This document shows positions 308 to 58,939 of a stretch of DNA of 64,000 nucleotides, one piece after another (position 1 is the stretch's first letter; each line of letters starts with the position of its first letter). The stretch is from Sphingomonadales bacterium. Lineage in GTDB: Bacteria; Pseudomonadota; Alphaproteobacteria; Sphingomonadales; Sphingomonadaceae. The position numbers and the translations under genes are program-made. The notes beneath the pieces are model-generated. The model was not told the DNA's origin. It saw only the letters and a list, made by a program, of their open reading frames with translations, and made no database searches. The stretch lies in contig JAYUIX010000160.1 in NCBI GenBank assembly GCA_043765635.1, positions 641 through 64,640 on the forward strand, read 5' to 3'.

Positions 308-1140
308 GCCGCAGCAATCGTTGTGCGGTGGAGCAGGCGGTGATGGCCATCATAGCCCCCGGTTGCCGCATGAAGCAGTGAACGGTTATCCCACATCAAA
401 AGCATTTCCGCTGACCATTTATGGCGATATTGAAACACTTCTTGCCCCTGCCACTGATAAAGTTCGATGAGCAGCGGGAGCGCTTCTGCGTCATCCATCC
501 CCTCAATTCCGATGATATAGCCAAAGCAGCTAAACAGCCCCTCACGCCCGGTTTCGGGGTGCGCCCGGATTATCGGGTGGTGCTGCGTTGCCTCCGCATC
601 GCTCGATGGGCGGATATCCATTGAGCGCTTGGGCGCGTCGCCATCACCGTAAAACCCGTCGGGGGCATAGGCGCGTTTGGCCGAATGGATCGCGCTGCGC
701 CCTTCGATCCGCGCGCGCAGATCAGGCGGCATGGCATCAAGTGCGGCATGTTGATTGGCGAAGAAGGTATCGCCGCCCACCGGCGGAATGCGAATCGCGT
801 AAAGGCATGTTCCCGCCGGTGGCCGCGCCTGAAAACTCCAATCACTATGCCAGTTTTCGGCAAACAGCGGCGAAGTTTCATCGGCCAACCGTTCGACCGC
901 GATGATATGATCCCGCCCCGCAATGGGCGCAATAAACGGATCATCGCCAAAGCCGCCAAAAGCAAGCGTGAAGCATTCAAGATCATCATCTGACAGTCGT
1001 TGATCAGGAAACGCGAGGACATGATGCTCAAGCCAAGCGCTCCGAATCTCTGCCACAAGATCAACACTGATCGGCTGTGATAGATCAACCCCCGTTACAC
1101 TGGCACCGCATGCTTGACCCGAAGAGGTTACATTGATCAC
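304..1140 (-). CDS. TauD/TfdA-family Fe(II)/2-oxoglutarate dioxygenase
   Basis: 278-aa ORF with the family's typical layout: GVDLSQP near the N-terminus, the WHSDWSF metal-binding region, and a C-terminal MWDNRSLLH..R motif. Confidence 0.8.
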   Translation of the reverse strand: MINVTSSGQACGASVTGVDLSQPISVDLVAEIRSAWLEHHVLAFPDQRLSDDDLECFTLAFGGFGDDPFIAPIAGRDHIIAVERLADETSPLFAENWHSDWSFQARPPAGTCLYAIRIPPVGGDTFFANQHAALDAMPPDLRARIEGRSAIHSAKRAYAPDGFYGDGDAPKRSMDIRPSSDAEATQHHPIIRAHPETGREGLFSCFGYIIGIEGMDDAEALPLLIELYQWQGQEVFQYRHKWSAEMLLMWDNRSLLHAATGGYDGHHRLLHRTTIAAA

Positions 1141-1149
1141 AAAGCAAAG

Positions 1150-1542
1150 CTAGCGCGGGCGGTGCTGCGTGCCAAGCCCGGCTGTGATGAACAGCGCGCT
1201 AGCTTCGCCGTCAACGTCAACGGTATGCCATGCGCCGGGCGGGTTGATCGCATATTCGCCGGGGCCAATCATCGCCGTAGCGGTGCTACCATCGGCCATT
1301 TCCTGATGCATCGTCATTGATCCGCTGATGCAGAGGACAACCTCAGCACCGTTTGGGTGCATTTCCCACATCGGCCAGCTTTCGGCAAAGCGGTACATCG
1401 TCACCAATCGCCCCTCAGCCCCGTCAGCCGCATATCGATCAATATAAGCGTCGTACCAATCCATCGCATTGGTGAATTCAGGTTGGATAATCGCAGTTGC
1501 GCCAAGGCCCAAATGGATCGGATAATCATATATGCTGGGCAT
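1150..1542 (-). CDS. cupin domain protein
   Basis: Small ORF with a cupin-like beta-barrel region (GEYAINPPGAWHTVDV). I chose ATG 1542 because GGGAG lies 8 nt upstream; the track start at 1548 is TTG. Confidence 0.6.
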   Translation of the reverse strand: MPSIYDYPIHLGLGATAIIQPEFTNAMDWYDAYIDRYAADGAEGRLVTMYRFAESWPMWEMHPNGAEVVLCISGSMTMHQEMADGSTATAMIGPGEYAINPPGAWHTVDVDGEASALFITAGLGTQHRPR

Positions 1543-5348: not shown

Positions 5349-6350
5349 TTACCCCTCTTCATCTTCTTCAGCGCGACCAACCAATTTCAAGGCGCGTGCC
5401 TTCATCTGACGCAATTCGCACCAGCGGATCAGTGCGTCCTCACTGCCATGCGTCACCCATGTTTGAGCAGGCTTGAGCTCGGTAAGTGTTGCGGTCAGCT
5501 CATCCCAGTCAGCATGATCTGAAATGATCAGCGGCAGTTCGACATTCCTTTGTCGCGCGCGCTGGCGTGATCGCATCCACCCCGATGCCATTGCAGTAAT
5601 GGGATCGGGCAAACGCCTGCTCCAGCGGTCACTCAGCGCCGAGGGTGGGCTCAATATAATCTGACCTGCGAGTTCGTCTTTGGTGACATCGCTCACGAGC
5701 CGCAAATCACCAAGTTCAACCCCGAGCGTTTCATAAAGCCGGCACATTTTCTCAAGTGCGCCGTGTAGATAGAGTGGCGCATGATAGCCTGCGCGGCGTA
5801 GTTCAGCGATCACCCGCTGCGCCTTGCCAAGCGCATAAGCCCCGACAAGGACACTACGGTCAGGCGACTGAGCCGCCGCCTCAATCAATTTGGCAATTTC
5901 ACCCGCAATCGGCGGATGGCGGAATACGGGCAATGCAAACGTCGCTTCAGTAATGAAGATATCGCAGGGCACTGCTTCGAACGCGGCGCAGGTAGGATCA
6001 AACCGGCGCTTGAAGTCACCAGTGATCACCACGGTTTCGCCGCGATACACAAACCTGATTTGCGATGATCCAAGCACATGCCCGGCAGGGTGAAAACTTA
6101 TCTGGACGCCCGCTTCATCAAAGGTTTCGCGGTAAGCGACTGCACGGCTTTCAGTTTCACCGTAGCGCAGGCGCATAATGGCCAGCGTCTCAGGCGTTGC
6201 GGTTACATGGCCGTGTCCCGAACGCGCGTGATCGGCATGGCCATGCGTCACAAGAACGCGTGCCTTGGGTATGGAGGGGTCAACCCAAAGATCACAAGGG
6301 CGAATATAAATGCCCTCACGCGACGGTTCGATCCAGTGCGGCTCAGACAC
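5349..6350 (-). CDS. ligase-associated DNA damage response exonuclease (metallo-beta-lactamase / beta-CASP fold)
   Basis: Contains the HGHADHA motif and an MBL fold. It lies directly upstream of, and is coupled to, the ATP-dependent ligase. Confidence 0.85.
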   Translation of the reverse strand: MSEPHWIEPSREGIYIRPCDLWVDPSIPKARVLVTHGHADHARSGHGHVTATPETLAIMRLRYGETESRAVAYRETFDEAGVQISFHPAGHVLGSSQIRFVYRGETVVITGDFKRRFDPTCAAFEAVPCDIFITEATFALPVFRHPPIAGEIAKLIEAAAQSPDRSVLVGAYALGKAQRVIAELRRAGYHAPLYLHGALEKMCRLYETLGVELGDLRLVSDVTKDELAGQIILSPPSALSDRWSRRLPDPITAMASGWMRSRQRARQRNVELPLIISDHADWDELTATLTELKPAQTWVTHGSEDALIRWCELRQMKARALKLVGRAEEDEEG

Positions 6351-22880: not shown

Positions 22881-23177
22881 ATGACTATGGAAATCGCCAT
22901 GCACAGCCCAAGCCATATCGGCGCATTTGTGCGCGAAATTGTTGAGGGGCATGATCTTAACGTGTCCTCAGCTTCACGCGTTTTAGGAGTAACACGTCAG
23001 ACGCTTTCGATCCTGATCAACGAACATGGCGGCCTCTCCTCCGACATGGCGCTGCGCATCGAAAAGGCGTTTGGGGTACGAATGGACACCCTCCTCAAAA
23101 TGCAAACCGCATGGGAGATAGCCGAGGCGCGCAAGCGTGAGGGCGCGTTTGATATACAGAGATATATGGCGGCTTAG
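22881..23177 (+). CDS. HigA-family antitoxin-like XRE HTH protein (no cognate toxin upstream)
   Basis: SHIGAFVREIVEGHDLNVSSASRVLGVTRQTLSILINEHGGLSSDMALRIEKAFGVRMDTLLKMQTAWEIAEA shows the HigA/VapI pattern. Confidence 0.8.
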   Translation: MTMEIAMHSPSHIGAFVREIVEGHDLNVSSASRVLGVTRQTLSILINEHGGLSSDMALRIEKAFGVRMDTLLKMQTAWEIAEARKREGAFDIQRYMAA

Positions 23178-23196
23178 GGTAGATACAGAAAAAACA

Positions 23197-23229
23197 GCGT
23201 TTTTCCTGTGGCAATTGGGGATGGTAGAG
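23197..23229 (+). repeat. direct repeat copy 2 (duplicated ptrB 3' end)
   Basis: GCGTTTTTCCTGTGGCAATTGGGGATGGTAGAG lies in non-coding DNA directly upstream of the protease gene. Confidence 0.85.
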
Positions 23230-23234
23230 CAGGA

Positions 23235-24041
23235 ATGGCAAGTGATACTAACTTACTTAATCTGTCGAATGCCGAACAAATTCTCTATTCAACCGTATTT
23301 GTCGAGACGATAGACGGCGATTCTCGCGCAACTGGTACAGCATTTTTCCATCAGTTTACCATGCCCAACGGGCGCAGCGCAGTTTCTTTAGTTAGTTGTC
23401 GACATGTCTTGGGAGGAGCGCAGACCTTGCGCTTTTGGTGTCCCATTCAGAGAGCAGATGGACACCCCTCGGATCGACATGCCGATATCATGTTTCGATT
23501 GGATAGGAATGTAACAACACATCCAGATTCGGACATAGATTTGGCAGGAGTGATAATCCATCACATAGATAACGCGCCCTTTCTGAAAGGTGAAAAGCTA
23601 TTTTACCGCGCCCTCAGTGAGGCTTTGATCCCAGACCATTCGCAATGGGAAGACCTGAGCGTTGCAGACCCAATTTTTGTTCCCGGATGTCCGGCTGGTC
23701 TGTTCGAAAAGCAAGACAGAACACCATTTTTCAGAAGCGGTATTATAGCGAGCCTTCCCAGAGATTCACTAAGGCCGCACTTCTACATCGATATGCCTAC
23801 CATAAACGGGGCGTCTGGCTCTCCAGTCATCATTGACTCACATTTTTCATTCAATCGGGCAGGTGGCGGATACGAATTGCGGAATCGCTTTTACCTGATT
23901 GGGATTGTTACAGATGGCCTTGAATTCACTCATCAAAATGGAAACCAAGACCTGCACTTTGGGAAAGTCGTCCGAGCGAACAATTTGCGTCAACTCAATG
24001 CGGCGATCCTTAACGACACAAGAGAACGTGACACCGACTAA
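23235..24041 (+). CDS. trypsin-like (chymotrypsin-fold) serine peptidase, no signal peptide
   Basis: A candidate catalytic triad occurs in order: GTAFF...VSCRHVL (His), DSDIDLAGV (Asp), TINGASGSPVI (Ser in GxSGSP). I chose ATG 23235; the track start at 23208 lies inside the duplicated ptrB end. Confidence 0.7.
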   Translation: MASDTNLLNLSNAEQILYSTVFVETIDGDSRATGTAFFHQFTMPNGRSAVSLVSCRHVLGGAQTLRFWCPIQRADGHPSDRHADIMFRLDRNVTTHPDSDIDLAGVIIHHIDNAPFLKGEKLFYRALSEALIPDHSQWEDLSVADPIFVPGCPAGLFEKQDRTPFFRSGIIASLPRDSLRPHFYIDMPTINGASGSPVIIDSHFSFNRAGGGYELRNRFYLIGIVTDGLEFTHQNGNQDLHFGKVVRANNLRQLNAAILNDTRERDTD

Positions 24042-24050
24042 TTGAAGTTT

Positions 24051-24413
24051 TCACCCCACCCCATATTCCCGCACCAACAGCCGTTCGGGCACATGCCATT
24101 CCTTGGCGATGCGGCGGATCATTGGCAGGGTTAGTGCGCGCTGCCGTTTGAGGATTTCGGTTGCACGACTGTTGCCGATTAACTGGGCGAGGTCGGCGCG
24201 GGTGTGGCCGTCATGCGCCATTGCCGCCTCAATCGCCTCGACTGGATCCATTTCATCAAGCGGCCAGCGCTTTTCCTCATACGCCTCAATCAGCGTTGCC
24301 AACACATCAAGGCGATCACCGTCCGCCGTTCCCTCAGTCGCGCCCCAAAGCGCTTCGATCTCACGCAGTGCTGCCTCATGATCGGTGTCAGTTTTGATTG
24401 GTTTGATATCCAT
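24051..24413 (-). CDS. higA: type II antitoxin HigA (C-terminal HTH)
   Basis: The 120-aa architecture matches E. coli-type HigA: an N-terminal helical region and a C-terminal HTH (RADLAQLIGNSRATEILKRQRALTLPMIRRIAKEWHVP). It lies downstream of higB. Confidence 0.8.
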   Translation of the reverse strand: MDIKPIKTDTDHEAALREIEALWGATEGTADGDRLDVLATLIEAYEEKRWPLDEMDPVEAIEAAMAHDGHTRADLAQLIGNSRATEILKRQRALTLPMIRRIAKEWHVPERLLVREYGVG

Positions 24414-24423
24414 ATTTGCTTCC

Positions 24424-24726
24424 TTAAAATAACGTCACAGTCAGCGCGTTGATCCGGTCATATTCACCGTGGGTACCGATGAACTTCACAAACGCAATCG
24501 CCCGCCTGAAATCAAATGCGACGATCAGACGGTAATCCCCGCCGGCGACTTCAAAACGAACGCGCTCACCGTTTAAAGCCTTCGCCTTGGAAAAAGCCGC
24601 CTGAACATCACTTGCGCTCTGCCAGTCCGCCGCTTTCGTTACATTTTGCCAATGCGTCAGCGATGCCTTTGTTTCGGGATGCTTTTCCCAAAAGGCCACA
24701 AGCGTGCTGCGCGCAATTATTCTCAT
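24424..24726 (-). CDS. higB: type II toxin HigB (RelE-fold mRNA interferase)
   Basis: MRIIARSTLVAFWEKHPETKASLTHWQNVTKAADWQSASDV...RVRFEVAGGDYRLIVAFDFRRAIAFVKFIGTHGEYDRI is collinear with E. coli HigB. Confidence 0.85.
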   Translation of the reverse strand: MRIIARSTLVAFWEKHPETKASLTHWQNVTKAADWQSASDVQAAFSKAKALNGERVRFEVAGGDYRLIVAFDFRRAIAFVKFIGTHGEYDRINALTVTLF

Positions 24727-24741
24727 TAGGCCAACTATCAT

Positions 24742-24804: not shown

Positions 24805-25200
24805 ATGTCCACCCCCTACACCCTCTCTATCACCGCTGCCCCATCGGACATTGACGAACTCGGCCATGTCAATAACGCCGTGTGGGTGCGGTGGATTCAG
24901 GATGTTTCGACCGCGCACTGGCTGTCGCTGGCGACGCCTGAGCAGAATGAGGCTTATATCTGGATCGTGACGCGGCATGAGATTGATTATCGTGGCAATA
25001 TCGCACTTGGCGAAAGCGTGACCGCGCGGACGTGGCTGAGCGAGATGCCGCGCGGCGCACGGTTTAATCGCAATGTTGATTTCACCAAATCTGACGGCAC
25101 TGTCATCGTTACTGCCAAAACCGCGTGGGCGCTGGTTGACCGGCCAAGCGGGCGGCTACTGCGCATTCGTGCTGATATCATTGAGCCTTTTATGGCTTGA
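24805..25200 (+). CDS. acyl-CoA thioesterase (hotdog fold, YbgC/4HBT-like)
   Basis: The motif DIDELGHVNNAVWVRW lies near the N-terminus. 131 aa. Confidence 0.8.
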   Translation: MSTPYTLSITAAPSDIDELGHVNNAVWVRWIQDVSTAHWLSLATPEQNEAYIWIVTRHEIDYRGNIALGESVTARTWLSEMPRGARFNRNVDFTKSDGTVIVTAKTAWALVDRPSGRLLRIRADIIEPFMA

Positions 25201-25207
25201 TAGATGG

Positions 25208-25523
25208 TGGTGCGGGCGGGGGGACTTGAACCCCCACGGGCAGAGCCCGACGGATTTTCTTACCAACTACGGTTTTCACCGCCGCCCTGCCAAGCAAGAC
25301 GTTTGGGGTCTGGACTATCCCTTCGCCGTGCCTCGGATATTCCCAAGGGTTAGGCGCTGCCCGTCTAGTCTCTACACCTTCCACGATGCTTTCGCGCCGC
25401 AGCTTGGCTCGGGATTGCCATTTTACAGGGTTCCCCGAATTTGAGCAGTTCTACGCCGCGCGTTTCCGCGTGGGCACTCAATTTGGTCTAAGTCCGTTGC
25501 GTCTACCATTCCGCCACGCCCGC
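25208..25523 (-). tRNA. trnL: tRNA-Leu(UAA) gene interrupted by a group I intron (exons 25523-25490 and 25258-25208)
   Basis: The joined exons give a perfect class II cloverleaf. Acceptor stem is GCGGGCG/CGCCCGC. Anticodon stem is ACGGA/UCCGU with loop CUUAAAA. The long variable arm is CGGGC-UCU-GCCCG. The T arm is GGGGG-UUCAAGU-CCCCC. CCA is encoded. Confidence 0.85.
25259..25489 (-). ncRNA. group I intron (IC3-like), 231 nt, no internal ORF
   Basis: It follows U34 and ends in G. The candidate IGS GAGUGCC (complement of 25473-25479) can pair with exon GGACUU. It contains a GAAA-capped hairpin (25459-25470). Core blocks are CAAAUUCGGGGAACC (25429-25443), GAGCCAAGC (25402-25410) and AAGGUGUAGAGACUAGACGG (25361-25380). 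Confidence 0.8.
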
Positions 25524-25589: not shown

Positions 25590-25868
25590 TTAGTTGTTCA
25601 AACGTGCGCGAATTTCTTTGCCGGGCTTGAAGTGTGGAACGCGCTTTGCTTTGATCTCAACGTCGATGCCCGTGCGCGGATTGCGACCGACACGAGCACC
25701 GCGTGACCGCGTTGAAAACGCACCAAACCCCCGCAGTTCGACGCGACCATCCTTGGCGAGATGTTCAGTGATAGTATCGAAAAATACGGAAACAATATTG
25801 TCGACTTCACGCAGCGACAGTCCCGGATTGGCTTTTACGAGTAACTGCACCAGCTCCGAACGGATCAT
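25590..25868 (-). CDS. ihfB: integration host factor subunit beta
   Basis: MIRSELVQLL...VELRGFGAFSTRSRGARVGRNPRTGIDVEIKAKRVPHFKPGKE is an HU/IHF fold. It lies downstream of rpsA, as is usual. Confidence 0.9.
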   Translation of the reverse strand: MIRSELVQLLVKANPGLSLREVDNIVSVFFDTITEHLAKDGRVELRGFGAFSTRSRGARVGRNPRTGIDVEIKAKRVPHFKPGKEIRARLNN

Positions 25869-26153: not shown

Positions 26154-27875
26154 TTACTTTTTGGTATCGCGTGCTTTGAGCGCTTCACCAAGGATATCGC
26201 CAAGTGATGCACCCGAATCGGATGAACCATATTGCGCCACGGCTTGCTTCTCTTCGGCAAGCTGCATCGCCTTGACTGAGAAGTTCGGCTTCTTCGAACG
26301 ATCAAAGCCAATCACCATCGCGTCAAACTTCTGGCCAACTTGAAAACGGTCGGGACGCTGCTCATCACGGTCACGGCCAAGGTCGGTGCGTTTGATAAAG
26401 CCCGTTGCGCCGTCATCGCCGGCTTGTACTTCAAGCCCGCCATCGCGCACTTCAAGCACAGTCACCGTCACAACCGCATTCTTGTTAAGCCCTGAAGCTG
26501 CCGAAGTGGTTGCACCGCCGCCAACGGCTGGCGCGCCCTTTTCAAGCTGCTTGATGCCAAGCGAGATGCGTTCTTTTTCAACGTCAATATCAAGGACAAT
26601 GGCGGTAACGCTTTCACCCTTGCGGTGAAGATTAAGCGCGTCTTCGCCCGAAATGCCCCACGCGATGTCGGACATGTGCACCATGCCGTCAACGTCGCCG
26701 TCAAGCCCGATGAACAGGCCGAATTCAGTCGCATTTTTGACTTCGCCTTCAATCTGGCTGCCAACTGGATGCTCGGCCGCAAAGGCTTCCCACGGATTGT
26801 TGACGGCTTGCTTGAGGCCAAGCGAAATGCGGCGCTTTTCAGTATCAACTTCAAGAACGATAACATCAACCTCTTGGCTCGTCGAAACGATCTTGCCGGG
26901 GTGGACGTTCTTCTTCGTCCAGCTCATTTCTGAAACATGGACGAGCCCTTCAATACCGGCTTCAAGCTCAACAAACGCACCATATTCAGTGATGTTGGTG
27001 ACGCGGCCCGAAAGCTTCGTACCCACTGGATAATTGGCGACTGCGGCTTCCCACGGATCGCTTTCAAGCTGTTTCATGCCAAGCGAGATACGCTGCGTAT
27101 CTTTATTGATGCGGATGATCTGCACCTTGACCGAATCGCCAATCGCGATGATTTCGCTTGGGTGCGCAACGCGCTTGTAGCTGATGTCGGTGACGTGGAG
27201 CAGGCCGTCAATCCCGCCAAGATCAACGAACGCGCCGTAATCAGTGATATTCTTGACGATGCCATCAATCACCTGACCTTCAGCAAGCGTTGAGATCAAG
27301 CCAGTGCGTGCCTCTGCGCGGGTTTCTTCAAGGATTGCGCGGCGCGAAACAACGATGTTGCCCCGGCGACGATCCATTTTGAGGATCTGGAATGGCTGAA
27401 CAATATCCATCAGCGGGGTGACATCGCGCACGGGGCGGATATCGACTTGGCTGCCGGGCAGGAACGCAACTGCGCCTGAAAGGTCAACGGTAAAGCCACC
27501 TTTGACGCGGCCAAAGATTACGCCGTCAACACGGGCAGACTCAGTGAATTCGGCTTCAAGCTTATCCCATGCGGCTTCGCGGCGAGCGCGGTCACGGCTG
27601 AGCATCGCTTCGCCATTTGAATTTTCAACGCGGTCAACAAACACTTCGACTTCGTCGCCAACCTTGAGGTCAGCCTTCTGACCCGGGGCTGCAAATTCGC
27701 GAAGTGGCACGCGGCCTTCGGATTTAAGGCCAACATCAATGACGGCCATGTCATTTTCGATTGCGGTGATGATGCCTTTAACCACCCGGCCTTCAAAGCC
27801 TTGATCTTCACCACCGAGTGATTCGTTAAGGAGTGCCGCGAAATCATCGCGCGTTGGGTTTGCCGAAGAGGCCAT
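26154..27875 (-). CDS. rpsA: 30S ribosomal protein S1
   Basis: 573 aa with six S1 repeats (for example GAFVDLGGIDGLLHVTDIS and GAFVELEAGIEGLVHVSEMS). Confidence 0.95.
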   Translation of the reverse strand: MASSANPTRDDFAALLNESLGGEDQGFEGRVVKGIITAIENDMAVIDVGLKSEGRVPLREFAAPGQKADLKVGDEVEVFVDRVENSNGEAMLSRDRARREAAWDKLEAEFTESARVDGVIFGRVKGGFTVDLSGAVAFLPGSQVDIRPVRDVTPLMDIVQPFQILKMDRRRGNIVVSRRAILEETRAEARTGLISTLAEGQVIDGIVKNITDYGAFVDLGGIDGLLHVTDISYKRVAHPSEIIAIGDSVKVQIIRINKDTQRISLGMKQLESDPWEAAVANYPVGTKLSGRVTNITEYGAFVELEAGIEGLVHVSEMSWTKKNVHPGKIVSTSQEVDVIVLEVDTEKRRISLGLKQAVNNPWEAFAAEHPVGSQIEGEVKNATEFGLFIGLDGDVDGMVHMSDIAWGISGEDALNLHRKGESVTAIVLDIDVEKERISLGIKQLEKGAPAVGGGATTSAASGLNKNAVVTVTVLEVRDGGLEVQAGDDGATGFIKRTDLGRDRDEQRPDRFQVGQKFDAMVIGFDRSKKPNFSVKAMQLAEEKQAVAQYGSSDSGASLGDILGEALKARDTKK

Positions 27876-31194: not shown

Positions 31195-31270
31195 GGGGCC
31201 TTAGCTCAGTTGGTAGAGCGCTTCGCTGGCAGCGAAGAGGTCAGCGGTTCGAACCCGCTAGGCTCCACCA
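31195..31270 (+). tRNA. tRNA-Ala(GGC)
   Basis: 76-nt cloverleaf with a G3:U70 pair, anticodon loop CUGGCAG, T loop TTCGAAC, and encoded CCA. Confidence 0.95.
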
Positions 31271-58863: not shown

Positions 58864-58939
58864 TGGTGGAGCTTAGCGGAATCGAACCGCTGACCTCGTC
58901 ATTGCGAACGACGCGCTCTACCAACTGAGCTAAAGCCCC
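58864..58939 (-). tRNA. tRNA-Ala(CGC)
   Basis: The reverse complement folds as a 76-nt cloverleaf with G3:U70, anticodon loop UUCGCAA and encoded CCA. Confidence 0.95.

Follow-up and report, generated by a model that had tools for sequence, protein, structure and literature searches.

The intron class that interrupts tRNA-Leu(UAA) genes has been known since 1990, and for the group I intron of the Azoarcus tRNA-Ile(CAU) gene a crystal structure has been solved. Paquin et al. reportedly described tRNA introns in cyanobacteria and alpha-purple bacteria in 1997 and 1999. Within the Proteobacteria, introns in tRNA-Leu(TAA) genes were reported in 2008 for 14 Burkholderia species in the context of tRNADB-CE (PMC2686568). 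Williams 2020 (10.1101/2020.01.27.920355) describes a screen of 80,413 bacterial genomes from which 5,292 tRNA genes split by group I introns resulted. According to this survey, Leu.3Ug, a class defined with Nostoc azollae as example, is one of four classical classes which together comprise 3,453 introns, and in the database cited there all four of them are assigned to IC3.

Here we describe a tRNA-Leu(UAA) gene that is split in the anticodon loop by a 231-nt group I intron and is encoded on the minus strand of a 64,000-nt stretch of a Sphingomonadales genome (the window). As judged from the sequence, we assign a probability of roughly 0.9 to the reading that the locus is a functional tRNA-Leu(UAA) gene of the chromosome into which an ORF-less IC3-type intron of the Leu.3Ug class is inserted at U34/A35.

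The split gene, its product and its annotation

The 5'-exon (25490..25523, minus strand, 34 nt) comprises the 5' strand of the acceptor stem, the D arm, the 5' strand of the anticodon stem and C32 U33 U34. The 3'-exon (25208..25258, minus strand, 51 nt) starts with A35-A38 and continues with the 3' strand of the anticodon stem, a long variable arm, the T arm, the 3' strand of the acceptor stem, A73 and an encoded CCA. Between them lies the ORF-less, IC3-like intron of class Leu.3Ug (25259..25489, minus strand, 231 nt), whose position i is found at window coordinate 25490 minus i; U34 precedes it and G231 is its terminal nucleotide. ARAGORN with intron detection (-i) called a tRNA-Leu(taa) of 85 nt with a 231-nt intron at 34/35 ('gactt-Intron-aaaat') at this locus. 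The joined exons alone were likewise called by ARAGORN as tRNA-Leu(taa) of 85 nt, a class II cloverleaf with the anticodon loop CUUAAAA, a 7-bp acceptor stem, a long variable arm, A73 and the encoded CCA. The exon sequences and the three coordinate ranges are exactly those of the original prediction. Its 85-nt class II tRNA with anticodon UAA, split at U34/A35, is also what ARAGORN returned in the intron-detecting mode that had been proposed as a check, and the same call bears out an intron that follows a U and ends in G. In the ORFs of the window UUA and UUG are used at 2.7 and 13.2 per 1000 codons, respectively, and thus a tRNA-Leu(UAA) is needed.

The expectation that default annotation would miss this gene proved right. 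Across the entire window, default-mode ARAGORN reported no tRNA genes other than two for tRNA-Ala, and thus none at the split locus, and an Rfam scan of the whole window at gathering thresholds reported nothing there either. In E-value mode, a search of 551 nt with the Rfam model Intron_gpI (RF00028) gave a match of 43.1 bits (E=1e-9) covering model positions 1-253 of 253. Hence, the covariance-model check that had been suggested yielded a significant hit over the full length, far above chance level, though one below the gathering score. The default whole-window scan was empty at this locus because 43.1 bits fall short of the gathering score of 50, which is an annotation threshold and no defining feature of group I introns. 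This cut-off was missed by 10 out of 11 clear relatives and reached by one, so that the low score reflects the model rather than the copy in the window. Williams 2020 (10.1101/2020.01.27.920355) states that none of the seeds of Intron_gpI is bacterial. Detection of group I introns is outside the design of tRNAscan-SE 2.0 (PMC8450103). For the window, the main consequence is a correction of the annotation: a real and probably essential tRNA gene is overlooked by default ARAGORN, by Rfam at the gathering score and by PGAP-style annotation, and since the split gene escapes default annotation, a genome like this one will seem to be devoid of tRNA-Leu(UAA).

The isotype calls of ARAGORN for split genes were unreliable as well. 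About 20 calls of 'Ser(aga/gga)' or 'Phe(aaa/gaa)' represented tRNA-Leu(UAA) genes with a boundary shifted by 1-2 bases. Boundaries were corrected by requiring the pattern stem-CUU/...G/AAAA-stem and re-calling the joined exons. In the window intron, GAAAA is present also in the P9b loop, in addition to the G/AAAA of the splice site.

Fold of the intron and its homologues

Helices were assigned by homology to the curated seed alignment published with Williams 2020 (10.1101/2020.01.27.920355) and to its consensus structure, and all assigned pairs are standard pairs in the window sequence. All elements are given here on the minus strand. P1 (25476..25493) is formed by exon ACUU and intron A1 G2 with U9-U14 (UUGAGU) and places a U34-G11 wobble at the 5' splice site. 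This helix (helix 1) is 98.4% paired, the pairs of its extension covary, and the U-G pair is invariant in 82 of 82 homologues. From the P1 proposed originally, the U-G wobble and the CUU/GAG pairs stand, and the additional GG/CC pairs lack support: they would require a bulge, and the exon stem varies (ACGGA, GCAGA, AGAGA) against a constant intron GUGC, so that they are without covariation. U9 and U10 could furthermore pair with A35 and A36 of the 3'-exon as a 2-bp P10.

P2 (25456..25473; intron 17-34; helices 2-3) is a CCACGCG-GAAA-CGCGCGG hairpin with a GAAA tetraloop, which shows compensatory changes in 6 of 6 pairs and is recovered by minimum free energy (MFE) folding. The strands of P3 are CUGCUC (25443..25448; intron 42-47) and GGGCAG (25357..25362; intron 128-133, placed by the covariation alignment). 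This helix 4 is 99.8% paired, with compensatory changes in three pairs. P4 (UCGGGG/UCCCGA; intron 52-57 with 76-81) encloses a minimal P5, and both together (25409..25438; helices 5-6) are 100% paired and found by MFE folding. P5 itself, CC...GG in the 12 nt CCUGUAAAAUGG (intron 61-72), is unusually small with two Watson-Crick pairs. P6 (GCC/GGU) and the GAAA-capped hairpin P6a follow at 25376..25408 (intron 82-114; helices 7-8); P6a is recovered by MFE folding, and changes between close strains mostly stay paired here.

The 5' strand of P7, G(A)GACUA (25366..25372; intron 118-124), lies inside the block GAAGGUGUAGAGACUAGACGG. Its pseudoknot partner UAGUCC (25312..25317; intron 173-178) was placed by homology and alignment, and P7 is thus pseudoknotted with P3. 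The P8/P8a hairpin (25324..25356; intron 134-166; helices 10-11), also found by MFE folding, contains an internal loop CCUAAC...GCACGG that resembles a tetraloop receptor and may act as one. The segment 25262..25309 (intron 181-228; helices 12-14) forms P9 (ACC/GGU), P9a (8 bp, UUG loop) and P9b (GCGGU-GAAA-ACCGU), the last two again in line with MFE folding. The last intron nucleotide, G231 (25259..25259), is the omega G, and both this G and U(-1) were found in 86 of 86 homologues.

The intron thus consists of P1-P9 only, without P5abc, P7.1/7.2 or an ORF in its 231 nt. MFE folding independently recovered P2, P4, P5, P6a, P7, P8, P9a and P9b, with a modest z-score of -1.79. With regard to the peripheral GAAA tetraloop-receptor contacts seen in Azoarcus (L2-P8 and L9-P5), the window intron has GAAA loops in P2 and P9b and the receptor-like loop in P8, but a P5 of only 12 nt. 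The sequence elements named in the original prediction, that is the GAGUGCC site (starting at intron position 11), the CGCG-GAAA-CGCG hairpin (corresponding to P2) and three core blocks, are all present.

When one genome for each GTDB species was searched with the 21-nt core, at least 120 loci were obtained. In at least 83 species these are tRNA-Leu(UAA) genes interrupted at the position seen in the window, all with U(-1) and omega G and with introns of 202-336 nt. The sphingomonads, at least 8 among the matches listed, were Sphingomonas yantingensis DSM 27244, S. canadensis FWC47, a Sphingobium, Novosphingobium, Croceibacterium, Pacificimonas and two Sphingomonadales MAGs. The matches listed also included other Alphaproteobacteria (Caulobacterales, Rhodobacterales, Bradyrhizobium and Methylocella), Beta- and Gammaproteobacteria (Burkholderia, Paraburkholderia and Rhodoferax; Halioglobus, Carnimonas and Microbulbifer) and, beyond the Proteobacteria, many Acidobacteriota, Binatia and Bacteroidia. 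The novelty in sphingomonad-like Alphaproteobacteria that had been implied for this locus therefore does not hold, since at least 83 other species, including at least 8 Sphingomonadales, carry the same split gene and cases in Proteobacteria have been published. The remaining listed loci were mostly alphaproteobacterial tRNA-Arg(CCU) genes (one from a betaproteobacterial Herbaspirillum MAG) and tRNA genes with a CAU anticodon, mainly from Betaproteobacteria, which correspond to the classical Agrobacterium and Azoarcus types.

For the analysis of covariation, 82 distinct split trnL(UAA) sequences were aligned and the structure of the window intron was projected onto the alignment. Among these homologues 93.7% of the cells were paired, in contrast to 31-43% with partners slid by 1-3 columns, a measure that is favoured over the slid controls by deriving the structure from one member of the alignment, the window sequence. 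Changes on both sides were found for 43 of 69 pairs (20-27 in the slid controls), and the covariation score was 0.321 compared to 0.05-0.065. None of 500 shuffles reached any of the five observed values. Covariation was seen in each of P3, P4, P6a, P8 and P9. In this set P7 and J6/7 do not vary and are uninformative, because they are part of the 21-nt core used as retrieval pattern; a plasmid homologue and the Arg.5Ug seeds have P7 as GACUG/CAGUC, which is a compensatory change. Between strains whose introns are 96% identical (loci L001 and L002/L058), 8 out of 9 changed pairs were still paired. At the level of comparative analysis, the intron fold is shown to be under selection.

From established group I chemistry and the crystallised Azoarcus relative we infer the catalytic steps and splicing in vivo. 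The split gene would be transcribed downstream of rpsA-ihfB, and the intron would fold into P1-P9 with the P3/P7 pseudoknot, exon ACUU pairing with the internal guide UUGAGU such that U34 is held in the U-G wobble. Free guanosine bound by P7 would attack the 5' splice site after U34, and the terminal G231 would then occupy the same guanosine site. The freed 3'-OH of U34 would attack the 3' splice site, with the exons presumably aligned by the tRNA body and the short AA/UU P10. Ligation would re-create the CUUAAAA anticodon loop, and once its ends are processed normally, an 85-nt tRNA reading UUA and UUG would result.

Related split tRNA-Leu(UAA) genes were also observed on mobile elements. With the split gene of the window as query, blastn against plasmids gave full-length matches of about 72% identity in 1,276 records, mostly conjugative resistance plasmids of Escherichia, Klebsiella, Salmonella and Acinetobacter. 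In pCTX-M3 the match is flanked on one side by a tmrB-like ATPase gene, which adjoins aac(3)-IId, and on the other by hypothetical genes and then ISCfr1, and it bears no annotated feature. This copy is an intact split tRNA-Leu(UAA) gene with a 213-nt intron, and the closest relatives of the plasmid copy are alphaproteobacterial, at 85% identity or less. Copies at 99% identity or more occur in 636 of 5,426 complete E. coli genomes; among the matches listed, none of 12 places carried an annotation at the copy. A literature search for a tRNA or intron beside tmrB/aac(3)-II found nothing relevant. The 21-nt core was found in at least 120 IMG/VR viral contigs as well, at least 60 of which carry Leu.3Ug genes whose introns are about 200 nt long; many of these genes are part of tRNA arrays. 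In deposited phage genomes, matches were limited to a few huge or jumbo phages. An intact unannotated split trnL(UAA) gene on a very common aminoglycoside-resistance module of clinical Enterobacteriaceae is a by-product of this study that may be of more practical interest.

Locus, inheritance and alternative explanations

On the same strand, 66 nt upstream of the split gene, lies an ihfB-like gene (Bac_DNA_binding, 92 aa; 25590..25868, minus strand), and rpsA, encoding ribosomal protein S1 (26154..27875, minus strand), serves as the upstream anchor of synteny. A scan for promoters and terminators around the gene gave nothing above chance. By eye, a candidate promoter TTCACA-N18-TATAGC, ending about 14 nt upstream of the tRNA, can be discerned. 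The exact RpsA protein of the window is also encoded on GCA_043747445.1 and two metagenome contigs, each time with the same neighbours; the split tRNA is likewise present on two of the three contigs, and the third ends inside the intron. The intron of the GTDB representative 'Sphingomonadales bacterium GFS_3822' is 96% identical. The order rpsA-ihfB-trnL(UAA), always with the intron, was found in S. yantingensis, S. canadensis, a Sphingobium and two Sphingomonadales MAGs, in one of which (BP_699) the spacing is wider and the tRNA is located about 1.6 kb beyond ihfB. In Novosphingobium ihfB-trnL was seen, the rpsA side being outside the stored block.

In a distance tree, the main grouping of the introns follows the host tRNA, and the next level follows the host taxon. 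The window intron is placed with Sphingomonadales introns and the published seed Ncf2.Leu.3Ug, the tRNA-Arg(CCU) introns nest among the Leu introns, and the cyanobacterial reference Sel1 is most distant. This fits vertical inheritance within the sphingomonads, together with the host gene, on a background of older transfers. Scanning metagenome contigs with the 23-mer of the spliced junction revealed at least 115 intronless tRNA-Leu(UAA) genes; among the intronless matches listed, none was beside a sphingomonad-like rpsA/ihfB and none was close to the spliced window tRNA.

A recent arrival of the intron or of the whole split gene from a phage, a plasmid or another phylum, instead of inheritance within the Sphingomonadales, would agree with near-relatives of this intron class in very different phyla, with relatives in phage-like contigs with tRNA arrays and on conjugative plasmids, and with the nested position of the tRNA-Arg(CCU) introns, which suggests past movement between sites. 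We nevertheless regard such an arrival as unlikely. The intron carries no homing endonuclease gene, for which 231 nt are too short, its local G+C of 0.57-0.59 does not stand out from the flanks, and it occupies the same syntenic locus in several sphingomonad genera. Moreover, its grouping with Sphingomonadales introns and with seed Ncf2, whose best match is from Sphingomonas canadensis, argues for descent within this order. Even less can be said for a relic, that is a decaying, unspliced split pseudogene whose work is done by an intact trnL(UAA) gene elsewhere. The analysis covered only 64 kb of the genome, which leaves room for such a second gene, and the Rfam score is below the gathering cut-off; this shortfall, however, is common to 10 of 11 relatives. 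A decaying copy is hardly to be reconciled with intact helices throughout, an intact U(-1), omega G and tRNA cloverleaf, the maintenance of pairing in 8 of 9 changed pairs between near-identical strains, and the conserved rpsA-ihfB-trnL position in several sphingomonad genera with the intron present every time. In Burkholderia it was the very lack of any other tRNA-Leu(TAA) gene that led to the intron-bearing one (PMC2686568). We therefore consider a relic very improbable.

A protein-spliced (bulge-helix-bulge) intron, another insertion such as a group II intron or an IS, or a chance pairing of two tRNA halves would account for nothing beyond an interrupted tRNA gene, and these possibilities are negligible. 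A bulge-helix-bulge intron was rejected by the insertion at 34/35 instead of 37/38. Against this type as well as a group II intron or an IS stand the full group I core with its covariation and the presence of U(-1) and omega G in all homologues, and an IS or other insertion is further contradicted by the lack of an ORF and of terminal repeats. Recurrence in at least 83 species dismisses a chance juxtaposition of tRNA halves. A further speculation goes beyond the favoured reading of a working split gene: this might be the sole tRNA-Leu(UAA) gene of the lineage, fixed at rpsA-ihfB before the sphingomonad genera diverged, with the need for guanosine and Mg2+ acting as a growth-state regulatory checkpoint beside S1. 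Taken as a whole, we give this little credence. If the gene were indeed the sole copy, decoding of UUA and of part of UUG would depend on a ribozyme.

Relation to described tRNA introns

The intron of the cyanobacterial and plastid tRNA-Leu(UAA) genes (Anabaena, Nostoc, Synechococcus) shares with the window intron the host tRNA, the U34/A35 site, IC3-type core blocks, the U-G wobble in P1, the omega G and the absence of an ORF. Thus, the insertion site (CUU/...g/AAAA, U34/A35) is that of the cyanobacterial trnL intron, as had been proposed. The Synechococcus seed Sel1, however, shows only about 57% identity over aligned positions (JC distance 0.61), P5 of the window intron is much shorter, and its host is an alphaproteobacterium.

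The assignment to subgroup IC3, made in the original prediction together with a core nearly identical to that of the Azoarcus and cyanobacterial introns, was upheld by the 21-nt core, the compact architecture and the identity to seed Ncf2.Leu.3Ug (81% over aligned positions). The block GAAGGUGUAGAGACUAGACGG is identical to the Azoarcus seed at 21 of 21 positions and to the Synechococcus tRNA-Leu intron at 20 of 21. The Azoarcus tRNA-Ile(CAU) intron (Ile2.5Ug) has the IC3 core and an identical J6/7-P7-J7/3 block in common with the window intron, and it is near-identical in the P3, P4 and P6 junction blocks and has GAAA tetraloops in P2 and P9. In contrast, it resides in another tRNA, is inserted after position 36 and not 34, and shares only about 59% overall identity. 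It contains canonical CCUAAG/UAUGG receptors in P5 and P8, whereas P5 of the window intron is reduced to CCUGUAAAAUGG. The Agrobacterium-type tRNA-Arg(CCU) introns (Arg.5Ug) resemble the window intron in their alphaproteobacterial hosts and IC3 core, with about 69% identity for seed Rur1, and differ in the host tRNA, the insertion site and P7, which is GACUG/CAGUC in the seeds Rur1 and Bbo3 compared to GACUA/UAGUC.

With the proteobacterial Leu.3Ug introns (Burkholderia, seed Ncf2) the window intron shares the class and a helix-by-helix architecture. Among the loci listed, Ncf2 itself is best matched by Sphingomonas canadensis (87%). The 21-nt core of the window also retrieved loci from Burkholderia and Paraburkholderia. 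In comparison to the window intron, the Burkholderia introns form a cluster of their own, in which P9 differs (GCGCAC/GUGUGA) and both P5 and P8 are longer. The window differs from these cases also in its host, an uncultured Sphingomonadales lineage.

For a specialist this gene is no surprise and it opens no long-standing question, as surveys have already established how widespread the class is beyond cyanobacteria. The class is far more common in Alphaproteobacteria and Acidobacteriota than the textbook list of Azoarcus, Agrobacterium and cyanobacteria suggests. The window intron is one more lineage in the known Leu.3Ug class, whose occurrence in Proteobacteria is known and which sphingomonads carry routinely.

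Strain-variable slot and other RNA matches in the window

The thioesterase gene (24805-25200, plus strand) is convergent with the split tRNA-Leu(UAA) gene, and the region past it is a strain-variable slot. Its cargo (window 22881-24741, compared with 13162-13946 of L001) differs between strains with identical rpsA. In the window it comprises a HigB-like toxin ORF (24424-24741, minus strand) with an adjoining 120-aa ORF, an HTH ORF, and a trypsin-like peptidase ORF in a stretch of low G+C content (23208-24041, about 0.47-0.49). L001, a contig with an rpsA identical to that of the window, carries a nucleotidyltransferase/HepT toxin-antitoxin pair in its place.

The only tRNAs given by default tools in the window were two ordinary tRNA-Ala genes with anticodons GGC (31195-31270, plus strand) and CGC (58864-58939, minus strand). 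The Rfam sRNA model LOOT weakly matched P8-P9 of the intron (25269-25356, minus strand) with 26.8 bits and E=0.004, below its gathering score of 46.4. This match is probably a by-product of common hairpin and GAAA-loop features and not a separate RNA.

Unusual relatives of the intron core

Searching with the 21-nt IC3 core (the J6/7-P7-J7/3 block of the window intron) also uncovered unusual arrangements. A contig of a MAG labelled 'Proteobacteria bacterium' (L012) carries one core on each strand, at 5651-5671 (plus) and 6129-6149 (minus), separated by about 480 nt. One lies within a split tRNA-Leu(UAA) gene; for the other, ARAGORN gave no tRNA. At three further loci (L016, L069, and L070) the core matches were located in long introns of 620-639 nt, whose host tRNAs were Leu(CAA) and Met(CAU) according to raw ARAGORN isotype calls, which were unreliable for split genes. 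These long introns probably carry an ORF, possibly encoding a homing endonuclease.

Viral contigs and phages

At least 120 IMG/VR viral contigs (L124-L243) contained the 21-nt core. In at least 60 cases the core belongs to a split tRNA-Leu(UAA) gene whose intron is compact, at about 198 nt, e.g. at 1078-1358 (minus strand) of L174 as well as in L163 and L196. Many of these genes are part of a tRNA array; among the matches listed, as many as 30 further tRNAs accompany the split gene on one sequence piece. According to a review of 2014, phage group I introns were until then known from protein-coding genes only (PMC3984707). Among deposited phage genomes, long matches were restricted to phages of the huge or jumbo kind, namely LR756501 and Agrobacterium phage Atu_ph07.

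Split tRNA-Leu(UAA) genes on plasmids

The 316-kb conjugative plasmids of Bradyrhizobium sp. ISRA43x (L245 and hits H1-H4) carry a split tRNA-Leu(UAA) gene with a 204-nt intron adjoining the trb conjugation genes. It shares 88-92% identity with chromosomal Bradyrhizobium and alphaproteobacterial copies.

An intact gene with a 213-nt group I intron of class Leu.3Ug was identified on plasmid pCTX-M3 (NC_004464.2, 61823-62121, plus strand, corresponding to 5001-5299 of L244; also hits H5-H37). This gene occurs on 1,276 PLSDB plasmids, whose hosts include Escherichia, Klebsiella, Salmonella, and Acinetobacter. Among 5,426 complete E. coli genomes, 636 contain it at 99% identity or more. None of the matches listed was annotated at this gene. 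Its neighbors are resistance genes encoding a tmrB-like ATPase and aac(3)-IId, and we found no mention of this split gene in the literature. Since its nearest relatives among the loci compared are alphaproteobacterial (identity of 85% or less), sequence similarity hints at an alphaproteobacterial donor of the aac(3)-IId/tmrB resistance module. The split gene of pCTX-M3 and that of the window belong to the same Leu.3Ug class and share about 72% identity.
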